Of a stretch of 64,000 nt of DNA, positions 40,646 to 55,171 are shown piece by piece (the first letter of the stretch is position 1; each line of letters starts with the position of its first letter). The translations under genes and the position numbers were made by a program. Source of the stretch: an uncultured Actinomycetes bacterium (GTDB taxonomy: Bacteria > Actinomycetota > Thermoleophilia > UBA2241); assembly GCA_963767005.1 (NCBI GenBank), contig CAVYCN010000002.1, positions 345,272-409,271 on the forward strand. The letters are read 5' to 3'. The notes beneath the pieces were generated by a model. That model had not been told where the DNA came from and searched no databases. It saw only the letters and a list, made by a program, of their open reading frames with translations.

Positions 40646-41932
40646 GTGACGTCGCCCGCCCGGGCCACCTTCGCCGTCGTCACGATGGGGTGTCCGAAGA
40701 ACGAGGCCGACTCCGACCGTCTCGAAGCGGCGCTCGTGGGGGCGGGCCACCGGCCCGCCCCCACGAGCGCCGCCGACCTCGTCCTCGTGAACACCTGCGG
40801 CTTCATCGACGCCGCCAAAGAGGAGTCGATCGCCGTCCTGCTCGACGCCTGCGACGAGGCTCACGCGCGCGGCGCCCGGGTCGCGGCCTACGGCTGCCTC
40901 GTGGCGCGCCACGAGGCCGAGCTGGCGGCCGCGCTCCCCGAGCTCGACCTGCTCTCGGCGTTCGACCTGGCGCCGGTCCTCGAGCTGCTCGCGCGGCTCG
41001 AGTGGCGGGGCGGCGCCACGAGCCCGGGATCGCGCCGGCGCCGGCGGCCGCTCCACGCGTACCTGAAGGTCTCGGACGGCTGCGACCGGCGCTGTGCCTT
41101 CTGCGCCATCCCGCTCATCAAGGGTGCCTATGAGACCGTCGCGCCCGACGCCGTCCTCGCGGCGGCGCGCGCGGCCCTCGACCGCGGCGCGCGCGAGCTC
41201 GTCCTCGTGGGGCAGGACACGACGCGCTGGCGGGTGCCGGGCTACGGCGGCCTCGAGCGTCTGCTGGCCGACCTGCGCGCGCTCGAACCGCTCTGGCTGC
41301 GACTCATGTACCTGCAGCCCGAAGGCCTCAGCGACGGCGTGCTCGAGGCGCTTGCGGGCTTCTGCGTGCCCTACGTCGACCTGCCGCTGCAGCACGCCTC
41401 GGGACGCGTCCTCGCGGCGATGGGGAGGGGCGGAGACGCCGCAACGCATCTCGCCTTGCTCGAGCGGGTGCGGGCGAGCCTGCCCGGCGCCGCGGTCCGC
41501 TCCGCGTTCATCGCCGGCTACCCGGGTGAGACCGACGACGACGTCGAGGAGCTGCTCGGCTTCGTGGCGGCGGCCGAGCTCGCCGTGGCCGGCGTGTTCG
41601 TCTTCGACCCGCAGGAAGGCACGCGCGCGGCCGCCCTGCCCGGTCAGGTGCCGCCGGCACTGCGCGCGGAGCGGGCCGCACGTCTGGGCGACGCCGTGGC
41701 CGCCGCTGCACGCCGCTACTGGGCATCGTTCGTGGGCCGCACGGTCGAGGTGCTCGTCGAACGGGGCTCGCGTGGCGTGGCGGCGGAGGTGGCTGGTAGA
41801 ATCGCAGAACAGGCTCCCGACGTGGACGGCCAGACGTGGGTGGCAGGGGCGAGAGCGCGCCGCGGCCAGGTCATCCGCGCGTTGGTCGACGACGCCGACG
41901 GGTACCATCTCTCTGGACAGGCCGTGACATGA
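40646..41932 (+). CDS. rimO: ribosomal protein S12 methylthiotransferase RimO (MiaB-family radical SAM)
   Basis: MTTase N-terminal domain (VTMGCPKNEADSD), radical SAM CxxxCxxC (CDRRCAFC) and a TRAM C-terminal domain. Confidence 0.8.
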   Translation: MTSPARATFAVVTMGCPKNEADSDRLEAALVGAGHRPAPTSAADLVLVNTCGFIDAAKEESIAVLLDACDEAHARGARVAAYGCLVARHEAELAAALPELDLLSAFDLAPVLELLARLEWRGGATSPGSRRRRRPLHAYLKVSDGCDRRCAFCAIPLIKGAYETVAPDAVLAAARAALDRGARELVLVGQDTTRWRVPGYGGLERLLADLRALEPLWLRLMYLQPEGLSDGVLEALAGFCVPYVDLPLQHASGRVLAAMGRGGDAATHLALLERVRASLPGAAVRSAFIAGYPGETDDDVEELLGFVAAAELAVAGVFVFDPQEGTRAAALPGQVPPALRAERAARLGDAVAAAARRYWASFVGRTVEVLVERGSRGVAAEVAGRIAEQAPDVDGQTWVAGARARRGQVIRALVDDADGYHLSGQAVT

Positions 41933-43793: not shown

Positions 43794-44444
43794 ATGCGTG
43801 AGCGGCAACGACGCAGTCTATCGCCGGACTATCCGGCGCGACCGCGGCGCGCGGGTCGGCCAGCCGAGGTTCGCGGCCGTGACAAACCGGGTGCGCCCGG
43901 TCGCGAACCCAGCCGGCGGCTCTTCGTCGCCTGCGACCTGCCGCTGGCGGCGCTCGCCGCCGTGACCGACTGGCAGGCCCGCGAGCTCGCGCCGCGCGAC
44001 GACCTGCGCCTGAACCACAGCCTGCACCTGACCCTCTGCTTCCTGGGCGCGGTGCCCGAGCGCCGCGTCGACGACGTCGCCGCGGCGCTCGCCGGGCTCG
44101 ACCTGCCGGCCCTGCCGAGCGGGCTCGGCGCGGCGCTGTTCCTGCCCGAGCGCGGCCTCAAGCGGGTGATGGCCCTGGCCCTCGATGACCCCACCGGGGC
44201 GCTCGTCGCGACCCAGCGTTCCGTCTCCGAGGCCCTGTACCATCTCGGGGTGTACGCGCCTGGGAAACGCCCCTGGCTGGCCCATCTGACGGTGGCTCGC
44301 TTCCGCCGTCCCGGTCAACCTTTTTCGCTGCAAAACGTGAACATCGCGCCGTTTGGACTGCCCTCGGTCATCCTGTATGCTAGCGTCCTGGAGCGGGGTG
44401 GGGCAGTCCACACGCCCCTTGCCACGTTTCCCACCTCAGCCTGA
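43794..44444 (+). CDS. thpR: RNA 2',3'-cyclic phosphodiesterase (2'-5' RNA ligase LigT/ThpR family)
   Basis: Two H-x-T-x motifs (HSLHLTL and AHLTVARF) of the 2H phosphoesterase fold. The ~40-aa basic N-terminal extension suggests the true start may lie downstream or be non-canonical. Confidence 0.7.
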   Translation: MRERQRRSLSPDYPARPRRAGRPAEVRGRDKPGAPGREPSRRLFVACDLPLAALAAVTDWQARELAPRDDLRLNHSLHLTLCFLGAVPERRVDDVAAALAGLDLPALPSGLGAALFLPERGLKRVMALALDDPTGALVATQRSVSEALYHLGVYAPGKRPWLAHLTVARFRRPGQPFSLQNVNIAPFGLPSVILYASVLERGGAVHTPLATFPTSA

Positions 44445-44462: not shown

Positions 44463-45554
44463 GTGGATAAAGACAAGGCCCTCGAAGCCGCCGTCACCCA
44501 GATCGAGCGCCAGTTCGGCAAGGGCAGCATCATGCGCATGGGCGAGCATGCCGCCGCGGCCGACCTGCAGACCGTGCCGACGGGCTCGCTCGCCCTCGAC
44601 ATCGCGCTTGGCGTCGGCGGCATCCCGCGCGGGCGCATCGTCGAGATCTACGGGCCCGAGTCATCGGGCAAGACGACCCTCGTCTACCACCTCATCGCTC
44701 AGGCCCAACGTCTCGGGGGCGTCGCCGCCTTCATCGACACCGAGCATGCCATGGACCCCAACTACGCGCGTACCATCGGGGTCAACGTCGACGATCTGCT
44801 GGTCAGCCAGCCCGACTACGGCGAGCAGGCGCTCGAGATCACAGAGATGCTCATCCGCAGCGGCGCCATCGACATCGTCGCGATTGACTCGGTGGCCGCG
44901 CTCACGCCGCGGGCCGAGATCGAAGGCGAGATGGGCGACAGCTTCGTGGGCCTGCAGGCGCGGCTCATGAGCCAGGCGTTGCGCAAGCTGGCCGGCACGC
45001 TCAGCAAGTCGGGCACCATCTGCGTCTTTACCAACCAGCTCCGCGAGAAGATCGGCGTCATGTTCGGCAACCCCGAGACCACGACCGGTGGCAAGGCGCT
45101 CAAGTTCTACGCCACCATCCGGCTCGACATCAGGCGCATCGAGACCCTCAAAGAGGGCACTGAGGCGGTCGGCAACCGGGTACGCGTGAAGGTCGCCAAG
45201 AACAAGGTGGCGCCGCCCTTCAAGCAGGCCGAGTTCGACATCATGTACGGCACCGGCATCTCGCGCGAGGGCACGCTGCTCGACCTCGGCGTCACCGCCG
45301 ACGTCGTGCACAAGAGCGGCGCCTTCTTCAGCTACAACGACGACCGCCTCGGGCAGGGCCGCGCCGCCGCGCGCGCGTTCCTGCACGACAACCCCGACAT
45401 CGCCGACGACATCGAGCGCCAGATCCGCGACCGCGCCGGGCTGCCCGCGGCGCCTGCACCGGTCGCCGCCGCGGGCGCCGACGGCAAGAAGTCGGCCGCG
45501 GCGGCGCTCGCCCAGGCCGAAGCCCAGGCCGCCGCGCCCGACGCCGAGCGGTAG
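44463..45554 (+). CDS. recA: recombinase RecA
   Basis: Near-textbook RecA (GPESSGKTT Walker A, L1/L2 loops, [16 protein letters not shown]) with an Ala-rich C-terminal tail. Confidence 0.97.
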
Positions 45555-45573: not shown

Positions 45574-46218
45574 GTGCCCACCGTCACGGCTCTCAAGGCG
45601 ACTCGGCGCGGCCACGTCGCGATCCACGTCGACGACGCCTTCGTCGCGGCGGTAGGCGACGCGTTCGTCGTGCGGCACGGTCTGTTCGTCGGCCTCGAGC
45701 TCGATGCCGCACGGCTCGACGAGCTCGTCGCCGCCGCCGGCGTCGAGCGCGCGCTCGCCGACGCCTACCGCCTGCTGGGCCATCGCGCCCGTTCCCGTAC
45801 CGAGCTCGCCGAGCGCCTGCGCGCCAAGGGCCATCCCGAGCCCATCGTAGCCGGCGTCGTCGAGCGTCTCGTCGCCGAGGGCCTGCTGAACGACCCCGCC
45901 TTCGCGGCCGCGTTCGTCGCCGACAAGCGCCGTCTGGCCGGCTGGGGCGCCGGCCGCATCGCTCGCGAGCTCGCGCGCCACGGCGTCGCCGACACGATCG
46001 CGCAGGCCGCCCTGTCCGGCTCCGGCGACGACGCCGACGAGCTCGCCCGCGCCCTGCAGGCGCTGGCCCGTCGCGGCCCGGCGCGGGCGCCCCTCGACGC
46101 CGCCCGCAAGCGCGCCTACGACTACCTGCTGCGGCGCGGCTACTCGACCGCCGTGGCCTACCGTGCCGTGCGCGACTGGTCGGCCGCGGCCGCCGGTTCG
46201 GGCCAAGTCACCGATTGA
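45574..46218 (+). CDS. recX: regulatory protein RecX
   Basis: Three-repeat helical RecX fold (RSRTELAERLRAKG...AAAFVADKRRLAGWGAGRIAREL) directly downstream of recA. Confidence 0.8.
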   Translation: MPTVTALKATRRGHVAIHVDDAFVAAVGDAFVVRHGLFVGLELDAARLDELVAAAGVERALADAYRLLGHRARSRTELAERLRAKGHPEPIVAGVVERLVAEGLLNDPAFAAAFVADKRRLAGWGAGRIARELARHGVADTIAQAALSGSGDDADELARALQALARRGPARAPLDAARKRAYDYLLRRGYSTAVAYRAVRDWSAAAAGSGQVTD

Positions 46219-46248
46219 CAGTGCCTTCGAGGCGAACCTACAATCACA

Positions 46249-46267
46249 AGTGAGCAGCTTGCTCACT
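46249..46267 (+). terminator. hairpin (AGTGAGC-AGCTT-GCTCACT) 30 nt after recX stop
   Basis: 7-bp perfect stem read directly, followed by a weak U-containing tract (gacTTTgcg). Confidence 0.35.
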
Positions 46268-46497
46268 GACTTTGCGTATGACTGTGGCACCTGAAGGCCA
46301 TGCATTCCGGTCCTAGGCGGCCGGCCTGTCGAACGAGCGACGTAGGGGTCTCACACAACGTAGGGAGCTTTTCGAGAGCACTTCCGGGCTTTCCCCGAAG
46401 CCGCACGTCAAACGACTGCAAAGATGCTCAAAGAACCGCGTGAGTGCCGGTAGGCACCGCGGCATGGCACCGTCAGGGACGACGACCGTACGAGAGG

Positions 46498-46522
46498 CCG
46501 GGCGAGTTGCCCGGCTTTTTTC
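46498..46522 (+). terminator. canonical rho-independent terminator (GCCGGGC-GAGTT-GCCCGGC + TTTTTT)
   Basis: Perfect 7-bp GC stem plus U6, located inside the recX-rny intergenic region 54 nt upstream of the rny ATG. It terminates whatever is transcribed across the ~250-nt lower-GC segment before it. Confidence 0.7.
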
Positions 46523-46575
46523 GTCTCATTTGACGTGACGTCGCAACTGACGATCACCGGCACAAGGGGACCAGC

Positions 46576-48105
46576 ATGACCGCAGTGTTCATCGTGATCG
46601 CGCTCGCCGCCGGCGTGGCGGCCGGATACCTGGTCAGGCGCTATCTGGTCGACAACCGGGTGAAGGGCGCGCAGGGCGAGGCGCAGCGCCTGCTGCGCGA
46701 CGCCCAGCGCGAGGCCGAGGCCACCGTCAAAGAAGCCCGCCTCGAAGCCAAAGAGGAGCTCCACAAGGTGCGCACCGAGGTCGAGAACGACCTGCGCGAG
46801 CGACGCCTCGAGCTCAAGAACGCCGAGGATCGCGCCGCCCAGCGCGAGGAGCAGCTCGAACGGCGGGCGGCCGAGCTCGAGCGCCGCGACCAGCAGGTCT
46901 TCGAGCGCGAGGAGCAGGCCGCCGCTCTCACCGAGCAGCTCAAGGTCGCGCAGGCCGAGCAGGCCGCCGCCCTCGAGCGCATCTCGGGCCTGACCGGCGC
47001 CCAGGCGAAGGAGATGCTCCTGCGCAAGATCGAAGAAGAGGCACGGCACGACATGGCCCGCCTCGTGCGCTCTATCGAGGACGAGGCCAAGCGTGAAGCC
47101 GACCGGCGGGCCCGCAACATCCTCTCGCTGTCGATCCAGCGCACCGCCGCCAACCACGTCGCCGAGACCACGGTCTCGGTCGTGCCGCTGCCCTCCGACG
47201 ACATGAAGGGCCGCATCATCGGCCGCGAGGGGCGCAACATCCGCGCCCTCGAGAACCTGACCGGCATCGACTTCATCATCGACGACACGCCCGAGGCGGT
47301 CGTGCTGTCGGGCTTCGACGGCGTGCGGCGCGAGATCGCCCGCCTCACCATCACCAAGCTGCTCGCCGACGGCCGCATCCATCCGGCCCGCATCGAGGAG
47401 ATGTACGGCCAGGCCAAGGCCGAGATCGACGCGACCATCGAGGAGGCCGGCGAGCAGGCCTGCTTCGACGCCAACGTGCACGGCGTGGCGCCCGAGCTCG
47501 TCAAGGTCCTCGGCCGGCTCAAGTTCCGCACGAGCTACGGCCAGAACGTGCTCAACCACTCGGTCGAGGTCGCCCACCTGGCCGGCATCATGGCGAGCGA
47601 GCTGGGCGCGAACCCCAAGATCGCCCGGCGCGCCGGCCTGCTGCACGACGTCGGCAAGGCGATCGATCACGAGGTCGACGGCTCCCACGGCCAGATCTCG
47701 GCACAGCTCGCCCGCAAGTACCGCGAGACTCAGAGCGTCGTGCACGCGATCGAGGCGCACCACCAGGACGTCGAGCCGCAGACCGTCGAGGCGGTCCTGG
47801 TGCAGGCCGCCGACGCCATCTCGGCCGCCCGCCCCGGCGCCCGGCGCGAGACCCTCGAAGGCTACGTCAAGCGCCTCGAGTCGCTCGAGAAGATCGCCGA
47901 GAGCAAGCGCGGCGTCGAGAAGTCGTATGCCATGCAGGCGGGCCGTGAGGTGCGCGTCATGGTCAAGCCGGCCGAGATCAGCGACGACGATGCCGTGCTG
48001 CTCGCGCGCGAGATCGCCAAGGAGATCGAGGAGACGCTCGACTACCCCGGCCAGATCAGGGTGACCGTCATCCGCGAGAGCCGCGCCACGGAGCTCGCCA
48101 AGTAG
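46576..48105 (+). CDS. rny: ribonuclease Y
   Basis: N-terminal TM, coiled coil, KH domain ([15 protein letters not shown]) and HD domain (LHDVGKA). Confidence 0.95.
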
Positions 48106-48116
48106 GAGCGGTCCAC

Positions 48117-49415
48117 GTGCGCACGTTCTATCTGCGGTCGTTCGGCTGCCAGATGAACGACCACGACGCGGAGCGTATCTGCGCGCTCCTCGAAGCGGAT
48201 GGTCTCGTCCGGGTGTCGCGCGTCGACGACGCCGACGTCATCGTCTACAACACCTGCACGGTGCGGCGCAGCGCCGACGACCGACTCGCCGGCCACCTGG
48301 GCGAGGCGGCCCGCGTCAAGGCGCTCGACCCGGCGCGGGTGGTCGTCGTCGCCGGCTGCCTGCCGCAGGTCGAGCGCGAAGGCCTCTTCGAGCGCTTTCC
48401 GTTCGTCGACGTGGCCCTTGGACCGCAGCACCTGGCCGAGCTGCCCGACGCCCTGCACGCCTGCGGGCAGCGCGGTTACTTCGACGGCGAGGGCGGGTTG
48501 TCGAGCGCTCTGCCGGCGCACCGCGAACGCGCGTTCCAGGCCTGGGTCCAGGTGATGTCGGGCTGCACGAACTTCTGCTCGTACTGCATCGTGCCGGCCG
48601 CGCGCGGGCCCGAGCGCAGCCGTCCCCTCGACGACGTGATCGCGGAGGTGCGCACCCTCGTCAGCGACGGCGTGCTCGAAGTCACGCTGCTCGGACAGAA
48701 CGTGAACGCCTATGGCAACGACCTGACGGTGGCAGATCCGCCGACGTTCGCCGCCCTGCTGCGCAGGCTCGACGGGCTCGCCGGCCTGCGCCGCGTGCGC
48801 TTTACGACCTCGCATCCGCGTGACCTGTCCGACGAGCTCGTCGCTGCCATCGCCGAGCTGGCCACCGTGTGCGAACACGTGCACCTGCCGGCGCAGTCCG
48901 GCTCTGATCGCGTGCTTACCGCCATGGGCCGTGGGTATACGATGGAGTGGTACCTGGGGAGGGTCGACGCCTTGCGTGCAGCGGTGCCGGACATCGCGAT
49001 CACCACCGATCTCATGGTCGGCTTTCCCGGCGAGACCGACGCCGACTTCGACGATACGATGACCCTGGTCGAGCGCGCCGGCTTCGACGCCGCCTTCACC
49101 TTCGTCTACTCGCCCCGGCCGGGCACACCGGCGGCGGCGTTGCCCGACCCCGTCGCGCCCGACGTCGCTCGCGAGCGTATCGTGCGCCTCGTGGGGGCGA
49201 CGCAGGCGCAGAGCGGGCGCCGGCGGGCCGCGGTGGTGGGTTCGACCGTCGAGGTCCTGGTCGAGGGCGAGAGCCGGCACGGCCGGTTGTGGCGCGGCCG
49301 CACGCGGCAGAACGTGACCGTCAACTTCGCGGGCACGGCCGCGCCCGGCGAGCTCGCGCCGGTCCTGGTCACCGCCGCGACGTCGACCACGTTGAGCGGC
49401 CGGCGCGTCACCTGA
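48117..49415 (+). CDS. miaB: tRNA-i6A37 methylthiotransferase MiaB
   Basis: MTTase N-terminal domain (SFGCQMNDHD), radical SAM CxxxCxxC (CTNFCSYC) and a TRAM domain. Confidence 0.85.
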   Translation: MRTFYLRSFGCQMNDHDAERICALLEADGLVRVSRVDDADVIVYNTCTVRRSADDRLAGHLGEAARVKALDPARVVVVAGCLPQVEREGLFERFPFVDVALGPQHLAELPDALHACGQRGYFDGEGGLSSALPAHRERAFQAWVQVMSGCTNFCSYCIVPAARGPERSRPLDDVIAEVRTLVSDGVLEVTLLGQNVNAYGNDLTVADPPTFAALLRRLDGLAGLRRVRFTTSHPRDLSDELVAAIAELATVCEHVHLPAQSGSDRVLTAMGRGYTMEWYLGRVDALRAAVPDIAITTDLMVGFPGETDADFDDTMTLVERAGFDAAFTFVYSPRPGTPAAALPDPVAPDVARERIVRLVGATQAQSGRRRAAVVGSTVEVLVEGESRHGRLWRGRTRQNVTVNFAGTAAPGELAPVLVTAATSTTLSGRRVT

Positions 49416-49421
49416 GGGGGG

Positions 49422-50198
49422 ATGACCGTGCGAGGCTGTGTATGTCCCCATCCGCCGTTGCTGATCCCGGCCGTCGGCGGTGAGAACCGGCGCCAGGTGC
49501 AGGCCACGGTCGACGCGATGGAGCGCCTGGCCGCCGACGTCGGCCCCGCCGACCTCGCGATCGTCATCTCGCCGCACACGCCGGGCTACGCCGACGCAGT
49601 GGCGGTGCGCACGCCGGCCACCCTCTGGGGCGACTTCGCCGCCTTTCGCAGTCCCAGCGTGGGGGTCGAGATCGACAACGACGTCGAGTTCGTCCAGCGC
49701 CTGATCGAGCGGGCCGACGGCGAGGCGGACCTCGACGTCGAGCCGCTCGACGACGAGCTCCTCGACCACGGCGTGCTCGTGCCGCTCTTCTTCTTGAGCG
49801 CGCGGCGCCTCGTCAACCTTGCCGTGGCGCGCCCGTACGAGCTGCACGCCCGCCTCGGACGCCTCATCCGCGAGACCGTCGACGAGCTTGGCCGCCAGGC
49901 CCTGTTCGTGGCCTCGGGCGACCTGTCTCATCGCCTGCAGCCGGGCGCGCCGGCTGGCTACGACCCGCGCGGCGCGCAGTTCGACGCCACCGTCGTCGAT
50001 CATTTCCGTCGCGCCGACCTCGACGGCCTGCGCCGCCTCGACCCGTCGCTGGTCCAGGGGGCGGGGGAATGCGGGCTGCGCTCGTTCATCGCGCTGGGCG
50101 CCTACCTGGGCGCCGACGCCGGCCCGGCCCGGGTCCTGTCCTACGAAGGGCCATTCGGCGTGGGCTACGCCGTCGCCGCCTTTGGCGAGGTCTCATGA
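49422..50198 (+). CDS. class III extradiol dioxygenase-like / MEMO1-family protein (AmmeMemoRadiSam system protein B-like)
   Basis: LigB-superfamily signature (ISPHTPGY...HGVLVPL...SGDLSHR) in a 258-aa protein. It is translationally coupled to the downstream AMMECR1 gene (ATGA overlap). Confidence 0.6.
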   Translation: MTVRGCVCPHPPLLIPAVGGENRRQVQATVDAMERLAADVGPADLAIVISPHTPGYADAVAVRTPATLWGDFAAFRSPSVGVEIDNDVEFVQRLIERADGEADLDVEPLDDELLDHGVLVPLFFLSARRLVNLAVARPYELHARLGRLIRETVDELGRQALFVASGDLSHRLQPGAPAGYDPRGAQFDATVVDHFRRADLDGLRRLDPSLVQGAGECGLRSFIALGAYLGADAGPARVLSYEGPFGVGYAVAAFGEVS

Positions 50199-50773
50199 GC
50201 GGCCCGGGACCCGTCGAGGAGCCGGGCACGTCCGGTGCGGCGCTCTCGACCGGACCGGCCGACTACGCCCGCTCGTGTATCGAGGCGTTCGTCGCCGGCC
50301 GGCCGGCCCCCGCGCCGCCGGCGGACGCCCTCTACGACACCGTGGCCGCGTGCTTCTGCTCGCTCAAGAAGCACGGCGAGCTGCGCGGCTGCATCGGCAC
50401 CCTGTCGCCTGCCGAGCCCTCACTCGGCAACGAGATCGCGCGCAACGCCTGGGCGGCCGCCTTCCGCGACCCGCGCTTTCCGCCGGTCGCCGCCGGCGAG
50501 GTCGCCGCGCTCTCCTGTTCGGTCGACGTGCTCGACCCGAGCGAGCCCTGTGGTCGGGCCGACCTCGACCCCCGCCGGTACGGCGTGATCGTCGTCGCCG
50601 GGGCGCGCCGCGGCGTGCTGCTGCCCGACCTCGCCGGCGTCGATACGGTCGAGCGGCAGCTCGGCATCGCCTTGCAGAAGGCCGGCATCGACCCCTCGAG
50701 CCCGTATGCGATCGAGCGCTTCACCGTGCGGCGCTTCGGCGAGGGCGCCGGCTGCGACGTCGCCTGTGGCTGA
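50195..50773 (+). CDS. AMMECR1 domain protein (AmmeMemoRadiSam system protein A-like)
   Basis: AMMECR1 core motif (CFCSLKKHGELRGCIGT). Confidence 0.7.
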   Translation: MSGPGPVEEPGTSGAALSTGPADYARSCIEAFVAGRPAPAPPADALYDTVAACFCSLKKHGELRGCIGTLSPAEPSLGNEIARNAWAAAFRDPRFPPVAAGEVAALSCSVDVLDPSEPCGRADLDPRRYGVIVVAGARRGVLLPDLAGVDTVERQLGIALQKAGIDPSSPYAIERFTVRRFGEGAGCDVACG

Positions 50774-51695
50774 CGAGCCCGCGCCGCCGCTCGTCGCCCT
50801 CTTCGGGCCGACGGGCATGGGCAAGACCGAAATCGCCGTCGCCCTCGCGGCCGAGCTCGGTGCCGAGATCGTGTCGGCCGACTCGATGCAGGTCTATCGC
50901 GGCCTCGCGATCGTCACCAACCAGCCGACCGCCGAGCAGCTCGCCGCGGTGCCGCACCATCTGGTCGGCGTGATCGATCCGCGCGACGAGTTCTCGGCGG
51001 GCCGCTACGCCAGGCTGGCCGAGGCGGCGATCGCCGCCGCCCGGGGGCGCGGCCGGCGCGTGGTCGTGGCCGGCGGCTCCGGCCTCTATCTGCGCGCGGC
51101 GCTGGGCGGCCTGACCTTCGGCGGGCCGCCCAGCGCCGCGCGCCGCCCCGAGCTCGAGGCGCTGGCGACGCGCGATCCCGGCGAGGCCCGTGAGCGGCTG
51201 CGGCGGGTCGACCCCGAGGCCTATGCGACGATCGATCTCGCCAACCCGCGCCGCGTCGTGCGCGCCCTCGAGGCCGCCGCGGCGCGTGAGGCGGGCGAGC
51301 TCGCGAGCACCGCCGCTCGGGGCGAGCTCTGGTCGCCCGAGGCGACGCGCCACGAGACCCGCCTCTTCTGCCTCGACGTCGAACGCACCGGCCTGCGTGA
51401 GCGCGTCGAGCGGCGCGTCGACGACATGGCGCGCCGCGGCCTGCTGGCCGAGGTGGCTGCGCTGCCGCAGCCTGTGTCGCGCACCGTCGCCCAGGCCATC
51501 GGCGTGCGCGAGATGCTCGCCGTGCTCGCCGGCGAGTCGAGCCTCGAGGCGGCGCTCGACCGCATGAAGGCCCGCACCCGTGCCTACATCAGGCGCCAGC
51601 TCACATGGATGCGCAAGCTGAACGCTGATATCATCCCCACGTCCGCTCGTCCCCCCGAGTCCGTCGCGTCCGAGCTCGTGCGGCGACTGTCGTAG
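50766..51695 (+). CDS. miaA: tRNA dimethylallyltransferase
   Basis: P-loop GPTGMGKTE, SADSMQVYRG and the MiaA C-terminal helical domain. Confidence 0.9.
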   Translation: MADEPAPPLVALFGPTGMGKTEIAVALAAELGAEIVSADSMQVYRGLAIVTNQPTAEQLAAVPHHLVGVIDPRDEFSAGRYARLAEAAIAAARGRGRRVVVAGGSGLYLRAALGGLTFGGPPSAARRPELEALATRDPGEARERLRRVDPEAYATIDLANPRRVVRALEAAAAREAGELASTAARGELWSPEATRHETRLFCLDVERTGLRERVERRVDDMARRGLLAEVAALPQPVSRTVAQAIGVREMLAVLAGESSLEAALDRMKARTRAYIRRQLTWMRKLNADIIPTSARPPESVASELVRRLS

Positions 51696-51712: not shown

Positions 51713-52578
<866 letters not shown>

Positions 52579-52582
<4 letters not shown>

Positions 52583-53760
52583 CCGACACCTTCCAGCCCC
52601 GCCTGTCCGAAAGGGTCGAGAGCCTGCCGCCCTATCTCTTCGCCGAGATCGAGCGCAAGGTCGCGGCCAAGCGCGCCGCCGGCGTCGACATCATCAGCCT
52701 GGGTATCGGCGACCCCGACTCCCCGACGCCCGAGCACATCGTGCAGGCCATGATCGAGGGCGTGCGCACGGCCCGCAACCACCAGTACCCCACGAACCGC
52801 GGCACCGCCGAGTTTCGCGCGGCGGTGGCGTCCTACTATCACAATCGTTTTGGCGTGCGCCTCGACCAGGACAGTGAGATCGTGCCGCTTCTGGGCGCCA
52901 AGGAGGGTATCGCCCACATCTGCTTCGCGCTGCTGAACGAGGGCGACCTGTGCCTGTCGGCCGATCCCGGATATCCGGTCTACACGACCGGCCCGCTGAT
53001 CGCCTCGGGCAGGGCCGTGCACCTGCCGCTGCGGCCCGAGCTCGGCTTCCAGCCCGACCTCGCGGCGATCGACGACGAGACGCTCGCCCGCGCCCGCATG
53101 ATCTTCGTGAGCTACCCGAACAACCCGACGGGCGCCGTCATCGAGGACGACTTCTTCACGCGTCTCGTGGCCTTCGCCCGCGAGCACGACATCGTGGTCG
53201 TCCACGACAACGCCTATGCCGACATCACCTTCGACGGCTACGTGGCGCCGAGCTTCCTGCAGACGCCCGGGGCGCGCGAGGTCGGCGTCGAGCTCTTCTC
53301 GCTGTCGAAGAGCTACAACATGACCGGCTGGCGGGCCGGCGCCATCGTCGGCAGCCCGGCCGTCGTCGACGCCTACTGGCGCCTCAAGACGAACATGGAC
53401 TCCGGCATGTTCGGCGCCCTGCAGCACGCCGCGGCGGTCGCGCTCACCGGGCCGCAGGACTCGGTCGCCGAGCTCTGCCGCCTGTACGCCCATCGCCGCG
53501 ACCTGCTGGTCGCGGCGCTGGGCCGCGTCGGTATCGGCGTCGAGCCGCCCAAGGGCACGATCTACCTGTGGGCGCCCGTGCCTGCCGGCCACACCTCGGG
53601 CAGCTTCGCCGAGCTCGTGCTCAACCAGGCCGACGTGATCGTCTCACCGGGCGCCGCCTACGGTCCGTCCGGCGAGGGCTACGTGCGCTTCTCGCTCACG
53701 GTGCCCGACGACCGCCTGAACGAGGCGGTGGCGCGCATCGAGGAGCGCGTCAGCCTGTGA
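52579..53760 (+). CDS. dapL: LL-diaminopimelate aminotransferase (DapL-type class I aminotransferase)
   Basis: Fold-type I aminotransferase with PLP-Lys region (SLSKSYNMTGWR) and a DapL-like N-terminus (LPPYLFAEI...ISLGIGDPD). It is adjacent to and coupled with dapF. The DapL assignment versus a generic aminotransferase is an inference from family resemblance. Confidence 0.65.
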
Positions 53761-53815
53761 CGGCGGTCCGGCGGCGTTTCACCCGCGGCCGTCTCGCGGT
53801 CGCCCGCCCCCTGCC

Positions 53816-55171
<1,356 letters not shown>

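Follow-up and report, generated by a model that had tools for sequence, protein, structure and literature searches.

Does the place of two genes between two enzymes of tRNA modification tell what their products do? This is the question raised by a locus on the contig CAVYCN010000002.1 of an uncultured member of the Thermoleophilia (Actinomycetota). The DNA considered here, called the window in the following, is a 64-kb stretch from this genome of 71% G+C, which has its closest public relatives among metagenome-assembled genomes of Thermoleophilia, and positions refer to it unless another locus is named. The two genes encode a LigB-type protein and a protein of the AMMECR1 family, and they are located between miaB and miaA, the products of which act on one defined nucleotide, A37 of tRNA. 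Conservation of AMMECR1 and its Memo/LigB-type partners extends from bacteria to humans, AMMECR1 being an X-linked disease gene and MEMO1 being implicated in cancer, and we know of no reaction for either AMMECR1 or MEMO1. To date, the clues to these proteins are owed mostly to their association with a radical S-adenosylmethionine (SAM) enzyme that is no better characterised, that of the AmmeMemoRadiSam system, while a pair that sits between two enzymes of the same nucleotide provides a link to function that can be tested. An earlier note on this DNA had accordingly suggested that the pair could act on tRNA or assist MiaB and MiaA.

The explanation that we favour is that the two genes represent a split, co-translated LigB-type/AMMECR1 module, orthologous to the fused or adjacent LigB-AMMECR1 genes found beside the AmmeMemoRadiSam radical SAM enzyme. 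In the Actinomycetota this module would have long been fixed in a housekeeping operon of the order rny-miaB-(LigB-AMMECR1)-miaA-dapF-dapL-hflX, with no radical SAM partner nearby. That we are dealing with a co-transcribed module of a metal enzyme and AMMECR1, which performs the usual and probably nucleotide- or RNA-directed chemistry of the family, has in our judgement about an even chance of being correct. Action on tRNA A37, or the use of MiaB as a substitute partner, are hypotheses that come from the gene order.

The comparative evidence comes from a survey in which one genome per GTDB species was scanned with an alignment of the LigB-type protein. At least 590 relatives were obtained, and the best 80 loci were analysed with flanks of 10 kb, using tblastn of the window proteins, calling of open reading frames (ORFs) and a hidden Markov model (HMM) for the radical SAM enzyme of the neighbourhood. 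AMMECR1 comes after the LigB-type gene in 78 of these loci; the other two (L036 and L042) lie at a contig end or on a short contig. Outside the Thermoleophilia, most relatives have the two parts as a single fused ORF of about 440–490 residues. In the window both ORFs were found at the coordinates given in the earlier note, on the plus strand, and the stop codon TGA of the LigB-type gene (50196–50198) shares 4 nucleotides, ATGA, with the start of AMMECR1 (ATG at 50195–50197), such that the translational coupling read from this overlap is borne out. Given the pairing, the fusions and the overlap, the LigB-type protein and AMMECR1 are one functional unit, and the split, overlapping gene pair of the window is a derived form of it.

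The same unit is usually accompanied by a dedicated radical SAM enzyme, as the earlier note had stated. Of the 52 loci without linkage to miaA or miaB, 45 have an AmmeMemoRadiSam radical SAM enzyme of 275–355 residues directly beside the pair. This neighbour is a bona fide member of TIGR04337 (342 and 266 bits against a cutoff of 220), after which it matches best the glycyl-radical enzyme activases, and it resembles the pyruvate formate-lyase activase, with a single-cluster architecture. The 45 loci are distributed over Bacillota, Chloroflexota, Patescibacteria, Eggerthellaceae and two Thermoleophilia. Compared by tblastn with the pairs of these loci, the window proteins have the same gene order and motifs and are 35–47% (LigB-type) and 39–59% (AMMECR1) identical, from which we conclude that the window pair is orthologous to the TIGR04337-linked ones. 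The catalytic motifs and metal-site residues are identical in miaB-linked and radical-SAM-linked relatives, and an adaptation of the miaB-linked proteins to another partner or substrate is thus not indicated. One radical-SAM-linked locus, in a metagenome-assembled genome (MAG) of Desulfovirgula (Bacillota; L054, 11424–13706), has hflX right after the radical SAM gene and is the only one of this class with a neighbour in common with the actinobacterial string.

It is important to point out that the arrangement of the window is by no means peculiar to this genome, which answers a doubt that the earlier note had left standing. The order miaB-pair-miaA-dapF, continued by the aminotransferase gene and hflX, is present in 28 of the 80 species-level genomes. 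All of these are Actinomycetota, from several classes: Thermoleophilia, several unnamed classes, a Coriobacteriia MAG, an 'Actinomycetes' MAG, a groundwater lineage of 37% G+C and Ca. Hakubella. In 27 of the 28 the pair is directly downstream of miaB, and wherever the contig reaches that far it is directly upstream of miaA; dapF, the aminotransferase gene and hflX are kept beside miaA in nearly all of them. The flanking synteny has been broken repeatedly, namely by insertions of about 3 kb that separate rny from miaB in L021, L022, L025 and L030 and by displacement of dapF or dapL in L026 and L070, and in spite of this the block miaB-pair-miaA is contiguous in 27 of the 28 loci. In the remaining one, from an Actinomycetota MAG (L023, 5816–9830), miaB is replaced by a sugar-nucleotidyltransferase/phosphomutase-like and a phosphohexomutase-like gene, while the order pair-miaA-dapF-aminotransferase-hflX is retained, which makes the junction between AMMECR1 and miaA the tightest conserved one. 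Two of the linked loci are short contigs with miaB-LigB(-AMMECR1) in MAGs labelled as Deltaproteobacteria (L005, PMZC01000177.1, and L019, JBLMXT010000277.1). Their LigB-type proteins are 77% and 52% identical to that of the window, the measured G+C content of L019 is ca 74%, and both contigs have probably been mis-binned and come from Thermoleophilia.

The two contexts are mutually exclusive. No TIGR04337-type gene is found within 10 kb of any of the 28 miaB/miaA-linked loci, and neither miaA nor miaB is adjacent to the pair in any of the 45 radical-SAM-linked ones (Fisher p = 2e-15, a value that is not corrected for shared ancestry). The HMM behind this comparison was built from 41 neighbour sequences, one of which was a MiaB fragment; owing to this seed effect MiaB itself obtains weak scores of 25–81 bits in the miaB-linked loci, which are separated by a wide margin from the 358–526 bits of the true enzymes. 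A six-frame translation of the window contains no TIGR04337-type ORF by the same model, in agreement with the expectation that a dedicated partner is missing locally. Seven loci fall in neither class. Three of them are on contigs shorter than 6 kb, L081 has a cut-off radical SAM gene at the contig start, and in L067 the enzyme is encoded at a distance of 6 kb; a true lack of the gene nearby is seen in L060 and L074 only, the flanks of which extend the full 10 kb. These last two, on a complete Dehalococcoidia chromosome (CP070819.1) and in the isolate Sedimentibacter hydroxybenzoicus DSM 7310, respectively, encode fused LigB-AMMECR1 proteins with no TIGR04337, miaA or miaB gene nearby, and constitute cases outside the Actinomycetota in which the radical SAM partner is either unlinked or absent.

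The possibility of a radical SAM partner encoded at another site was approached indirectly. Among the 120 best homologues (at least 71% identity) of a Thermoleophilia TIGR04337 enzyme, three matches on large contigs were inspected; all are complete radical SAM-LigB-AMMECR1 triads, and none is an orphan. The triads (L084, 6001–8486; L086, 6001–8426; L087, 6001–8443) belong to high-G+C soil Actinomycetota and are on contigs of 0.78–3.56 Mb, in a context of a PASTA Ser/Thr kinase, a PHP phosphoesterase, the triad itself, DUF2267, Lon, HSP20 and UPF0182; in L087, an RtcB RNA ligase and Archease are encoded beside DUF2267. No assembly with both a miaB-linked and a radical-SAM-linked locus was found among the best 80 of the at least 590 relatives. 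Both results are weak negatives.

As to the age of the arrangement, the divergence of the pair follows that of its neighbours. Relative to the window, MiaB is 55–89% and the LigB-type protein 50–88% identical in the linked Thermoleophilia loci, and the corresponding values in the linked loci of other classes are 42–47% and 40–47%. This parallel fits with a vertical co-inheritance of the pair and its flanking genes. The miaB-linked lineages of different classes are 45–50% identical to each other, compared to 43–44% to the radical-SAM-linked sequences, and a neighbour-joining tree without bootstrap leaves the deep nodes open. Since the distances between classes are thus close to those to the radical-SAM-linked sequences, the placement between miaB and miaA is either very old or of more than one origin. 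Taken together, the arrangement is a genuine, probably old and Actinomycetota-wide variant of an AmmeMemoRadiSam-type system without a local radical SAM partner.

We now consider the two proteins themselves. The assignment of the second one to the AMMECR1 family holds, with scores above the cutoff of TIGR04335 (AmmeMemoSam_A) and a match to the Pfam AMMECR1 domain (Table 1). Among the solved structures, 1zq7 and 1vaj are the closest in sequence. The motifs R64-G-C66-I-G and D92-P-R-F95 correspond to the RGChG and DxRa signatures that were proposed to make up the active site of AMMECR1 (Balaji & Aravind 2007, PMC2034487), and a modification of RNA bases by means of a catalytic cysteine has been predicted for the family (PMC2034487; PMC4075521).

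For the first protein, which the earlier note had described as MEMO1-like with a LigB fold, only the second half of the description stands. Both the Pfam LigB domain and the predicted fold place it in the LigB/class III extradiol dioxygenase superfamily. An AlphaFold2 model built from 19 homologues (mean predicted local distance difference test score, pLDDT, of 87.6) was compared by Foldseek with the known structures. The template modelling (TM) score is 0.85 with TK2203 (5hee) and 0.63–0.78 with other LigB-type extradiol dioxygenases, while MEMO1 first appears at rank 32 with 0.50–0.57, the top 31 PDB matches all being of the LigB type. There is no match to Pfam Memo (PF01875), and the score on the NCBIfam MEMO1 family model NF001987 is 16.5 bits against a cutoff of 295. 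On TIGR04336 (AmmeMemoSam_B) the protein obtains 21.1 bits, below the cutoff of 26; the LigB-type proteins that adjoin real TIGR04337 genes score 22–34 bits on this model, that is, the subfamily straddles the cutoff. By its sequence and modelled fold, the protein is thus LigB-type and not MEMO1-type, and MEMO1-like at the superfamily level only.

The residues of a putative metal site are conserved. His10, His52, His170, Glu216 and Cys217 are invariant in the subfamily, whereas 2 of 19 sequences have Trp instead of His116. Profile alignments with solved dioxygenases bring His10, His52 and Glu216 onto the PHPP, SPH and Glu motifs, respectively, of the aminophenol and homoprotocatechuate enzymes, and His170 onto an LSH motif; the first three match His/His/Glu positions that we take to be the iron ligands in those enzymes. 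The conservation of these residues predicts that the LigB-type protein is probably a functional metal enzyme. A further feature is the motif G-C-V/I-C-P-H-P-P, in which Cys6-x-Cys8 (49437–49445) immediately precedes the putative ligand His10. It is invariant in 19 Thermoleophilia sequences, and the two cysteines are replaced by other residues in the other lineages, miaB-linked and radical-SAM-linked alike. Judged from this pattern, Cys6-x-Cys8 could be an additional, lineage-specific metal or redox feature.

The position of the pair in the window is compatible with a single transcription unit. The genes from recA to hflX are densely packed on the plus strand in the order recA-recX-rny-miaB-(LigB-AMMECR1)-miaA-dapF-dapL-hflX (Table 1). 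The earlier note had the pair embedded between miaB and miaA, and both flanking genes are indeed what they were taken to be, each exceeding the cutoff of its TIGRFAM model. The stop codon of miaB is 6 nucleotides from the ATG of the LigB-type gene, which is preceded by the Shine-Dalgarno-like run GAGGGGGG, and the GTG of miaA at 50766, the start according to an independent gene call on the identical public contig, overlaps the end of AMMECR1 by 8 nucleotides. Between 43500 and 57000 there is only one good promoter-like site, which is a consensus match only. In the same interval, 4 terminator-like sites were found against 3.1 expected from shuffled sequences, which means that there is no excess. 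The junctions of 6, −4 and −8 nucleotides, the one promoter-like site upstream of rny and the lack of a terminator excess suggest that the pair is a member of the operon.

Table 1. Features of the window around the LigB-type/AMMECR1 pair (scores in bits, with the model cutoff in parentheses).
Feature	Position	Strand	Evidence and remarks
RimO-like radical SAM methylthiotransferase (MiaB/RimO family)	40646–41932	+	best score RimO 327.5 (equivalog cutoff 357); subfamily model 261 (251)
LigT/ThpR-like RNA 2',3'-cyclic phosphodiesterase	43794–44444	+	63.9, marginally below TIGR02258 (65.7); just 5' of recA
recA	44463–45554	+	recX next
Sigma-70-like promoter, TTGACA-18-TACAAT	46215–46244	+	11 of 12 consensus matches; in recX-rny interval; candidate start of the transcription unit
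rny (ribonuclease Y)	46576–48105	+	TIGR03319 730 (454); 11 nucleotides upstream of miaB
miaB (tRNA i6A37 C2-methylthiotransferase)	48117–49415	+	TIGR01574 425 (355)
LigB-type protein, 258 residues	49422–50198	+	PF02900 99.3 (26.3); 'B' component of the pair
ATGA start/stop overlap of LigB-type gene and AMMECR1	50195–50198	+	from the sequence
AMMECR1-family protein, 192 residues	50195–50773	+	PF01871 136.5; TIGR04335 119 (99)
miaA (tRNA dimethylallyltransferase), GTG start	50766–51695	+	TIGR00174 201 (149)
dapF, LL-diaminopimelate aminotransferase gene, hflX	51713–55171	+	downstream part of the conserved string; unrelated in function to tRNA A37 modification
LL-diaminopimelate aminotransferase	52579–53760	+	after dapF; NF006756 540.6 (507)

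Some other features of the window deserve mention. The promoter-like site follows directly after recX and would give an untranslated leader of about 330 nucleotides ahead of rny (46215–46575, plus strand). Scans with Rfam and for tRNA genes gave no match across the 64 kb. The aminotransferase encoded beside dapF suggests the DapL variant of the lysine pathway. Finally, there is another radical SAM enzyme besides MiaB in the vicinity, which the earlier note had overlooked: a RimO-like methylthiotransferase is encoded 6.2 kb upstream of miaB, and this gene keeps the same position in the miaB-linked Thermoleophilia loci.

How could such a module work? The LigB-type subunit would be an active non-haem metal enzyme, probably with Fe(II), because the residues aligned with the 2-His-1-Glu site and the catalytic His are retained. 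AMMECR1 would provide a substrate-binding cleft with the reactive cysteine, and the two subunits together would catalyse a single oxidative step, with a nucleotide or an RNA base as the substrate, with the same chemistry as in the radical-SAM-linked systems. Within the phylum, position 37 of tRNA, as N6-isopentenyladenosine (i6A) or its 2-methylthio derivative (ms2i6A), appears as the most obvious candidate substrate on account of the presumed co-transcription with miaB and miaA, a proposal that comes from the gene order. The idea of RNA modification is as such not new. Balaji & Aravind described in 2007 a neighbourhood of 'ring-opening dioxygenase + AMMECR1 + radical SAM' genes, including LigB-AMMECR1 fusions, and proposed an uncharacterised RNA base modification for the AMMECR1 system (PMC2034487), and Burroughs & Aravind repeated the proposal in 2014 for archaeal contexts (PMC4075521).

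An alternative that has to be taken seriously is that the pair merely travels with its neighbours. It would then do the same job as elsewhere, unrelated to tRNA, with a radical SAM partner encoded at another site or with none at all, and the locus would go back to one old insertion retained in a conserved operon. Burroughs et al. are said to have considered in 2019 an isoprenoid or small-molecule chemistry, which would be one option for such a job. The block preserves the unrelated recA, dapF and dapL equally well, the link to miaA and miaB is restricted to one phylum, and pairs without a nearby radical SAM gene occur in other phyla as well (L060 and L074). Eukaryotes possess AMMECR1 and MEMO1 but are not known to have this radical SAM enzyme, and the two proteins apparently work there without a dedicated one. 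What speaks for more than passive retention is that miaB, pair and miaA have stayed together while the flanks around them were broken again and again, and that a slot exactly between two enzymes of the same nucleotide would be striking for a random insertion. On balance we find this alternative doubtful, although it is a real contender.

The opposite alternative is that the pair acts directly in the ms2i6A37 pathway, either by forming a further derivative of i6A or ms2i6A or by aiding MiaB and MiaA, with MiaB in the place of the dedicated radical SAM enzyme. The distribution can be read in this sense. Namely, in 75 of the 80 loci (73 with strict adjacency, plus L067 and L081) the pair is beside either TIGR04337 or MiaB and never beside both, it follows right after miaB in all but one of the linked loci and always precedes miaA where the contig extends, and the genes abut closely or overlap at the junctions. 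In addition, the radical SAM enzyme of the system has been called 'related to MiaB' (Balaji & Aravind 2007, PMC2034487). However, the usual partner of the pair is a single-cluster enzyme of the activase type, whereas MiaB in the window is an ordinary two-cluster methylthiotransferase of TIGR01574, with the UPF0004, radical SAM and TRAM domains in Pfam and no additional one. MiaB is therefore unlikely to be the replacement, and a direct substitution would be unattractive on chemical grounds. The catalytic motifs of the pair are moreover the same in both contexts, and L023 retains pair and miaA without miaB. AMMECR1 and Memo are also present in S. cerevisiae, which is not known to have methylthiotransferases of the MiaB family, and in Archaea, which are not known to have i6A. 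We thus consider a direct role with MiaB as the partner unlikely. In a related proposal, the LigB-AMMECR1 module of the Actinomycetota would have been recruited to the A37 pathway without the need for a dedicated radical SAM partner and would act together with MiaA and MiaB, oxidising for example the isopentenyl side chain or processing a MiaB intermediate. This more specific scenario we regard as improbable.

Several observations weigh against any reading that ties the pair to A37. The conserved block also contains recA, recX, dapF and the diaminopimelate aminotransferase gene, which have nothing to do with this nucleotide, and since it keeps such unrelated genes together, adjacency is weak and non-specific evidence of a shared function. 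Among the 80 loci there is no case outside the Actinomycetota in which the pair is next to miaA or miaB, and clustering of the neighbours in the radical-SAM-linked loci gave no recurrent family besides the radical SAM enzyme and none that is tRNA-related. The absence of a TIGR04337 gene from the miaB-linked genomes is local in scope, covering the window and the 10-kb flanks. Mycobacterium and Streptomyces have kept miaB and miaA and are not known to have the pair, and Archaea are not known to have MiaA or i6A. AMMECR1 is near-universal in Archaea (PMC2034487), which together with the latter point means that an i6A-specific role cannot be the general function of the family, although a lineage-specific recruitment to i6A may have taken place. 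A search of the accessible literature for an experimental function of the pair, or for a link to MiaA or MiaB, gave nothing beyond the predictions of the Aravind group from 2007 and 2014.

The remaining option, an ordinary catabolic extradiol ring-cleavage dioxygenase gene that is beside AMMECR1 by chance, could appeal to the Pfam LigB match and to the structural likeness to aminophenol and homoprotocatechuate dioxygenases, and was rejected as highly implausible on the basis of gene context and sub-threshold scores: the pairing or fusion with AMMECR1 is near-universal, there are no genes of aromatic catabolism nearby, the equivalog dioxygenase models all score far below their cutoffs (for example HpaD, 20.8 against 316), and the protein is small and has no alpha-subunit partner of the kind typical of LigAB and aminophenol dioxygenases.

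The arrangement is of consequence whichever way the question of A37 is settled. A true link to tRNA A37 would add a new step of tRNA modification and disclose the chemistry of the whole superfamily. In the case of a recruitment to A37, this would be an undescribed derivative of i6A or ms2i6A, and biochemistry would gain its first access to the AMMECR1/Memo superfamily, including the human disease gene. If the link is false, the locus would serve as a warning that a deeply conserved operon position, which dapF and recA hold as well, need not mean a shared function.

It remains to compare the pair with the systems that are already known. The closest single protein is TK2203 from Thermococcus kodakarensis (5hee), which is the best match to the LigB-type protein both in structure and in sequence (54.8 bits); the identity is only about 20%, however, and TK2203 has Asp-Ser instead of Glu-Cys at the position of Glu216. 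With the class III extradiol dioxygenases the protein has the aligned His/His/Glu motifs in common, but the catabolic members have catechols or aminophenols as substrates and lack a pairing with AMMECR1. Eukaryotic MEMO1 and AMMECR1 represent the same superfamily pair, also with a Cys that adjoins the metal site (in GECG here, as Cys244 in MEMO1), although MEMO1 is a distant structural relative. Memo-AMMECR1 systems are reportedly the subject of a study by Burroughs et al. from 2019 in the Journal of Biological Chemistry (JBC), the abstract of which is said to link the Memo clade to 'nucleotide base and aliphatic isoprenoid modification', and this work may already cover the miaB-miaA context.

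The MiaA/MiaB/MiaE pathway, which leads at position 37 of tRNA to i6A, ms2i6A and ms2io6A, is represented here by the bona fide miaB and miaA that flank the pair, with miaA overlapping it. MiaE also sets a precedent, as an iron enzyme that depends on oxygen and introduces a further modification into the isopentenyl group (PMC5699536). Neither protein of the pair is related to MiaE, though, and many organisms have miaA and miaB without the pair. The system of Balaji & Aravind has the same two domains in the same order, the RGChG cysteine and DxRa motifs and the proposal of RNA base modification, and the window differs from it in that the domains are split into two overlapping ORFs inside a miaB-miaA operon. 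Finally, the pair shares with the AmmeMemoRadiSam system (TIGR04335 A, TIGR04336 B and TIGR04337) all catalytic motifs and an AMMECR1 protein above the TIGR04335 cutoff, and by tblastn with the window proteins it is 37–47% identical to LigB-AMMECR1 proteins encoded beside bona fide TIGR04337 enzymes. It differs from that system in its B component, which is LigB-type and below the TIGR04336 cutoff, and in having the miaB/miaA context instead of a TIGR04337 gene, both in the window and within 10 kb of the pair in the other linked loci. The miaB-linked pair is thus a moderately interesting variant of a known, uncharacterised system.

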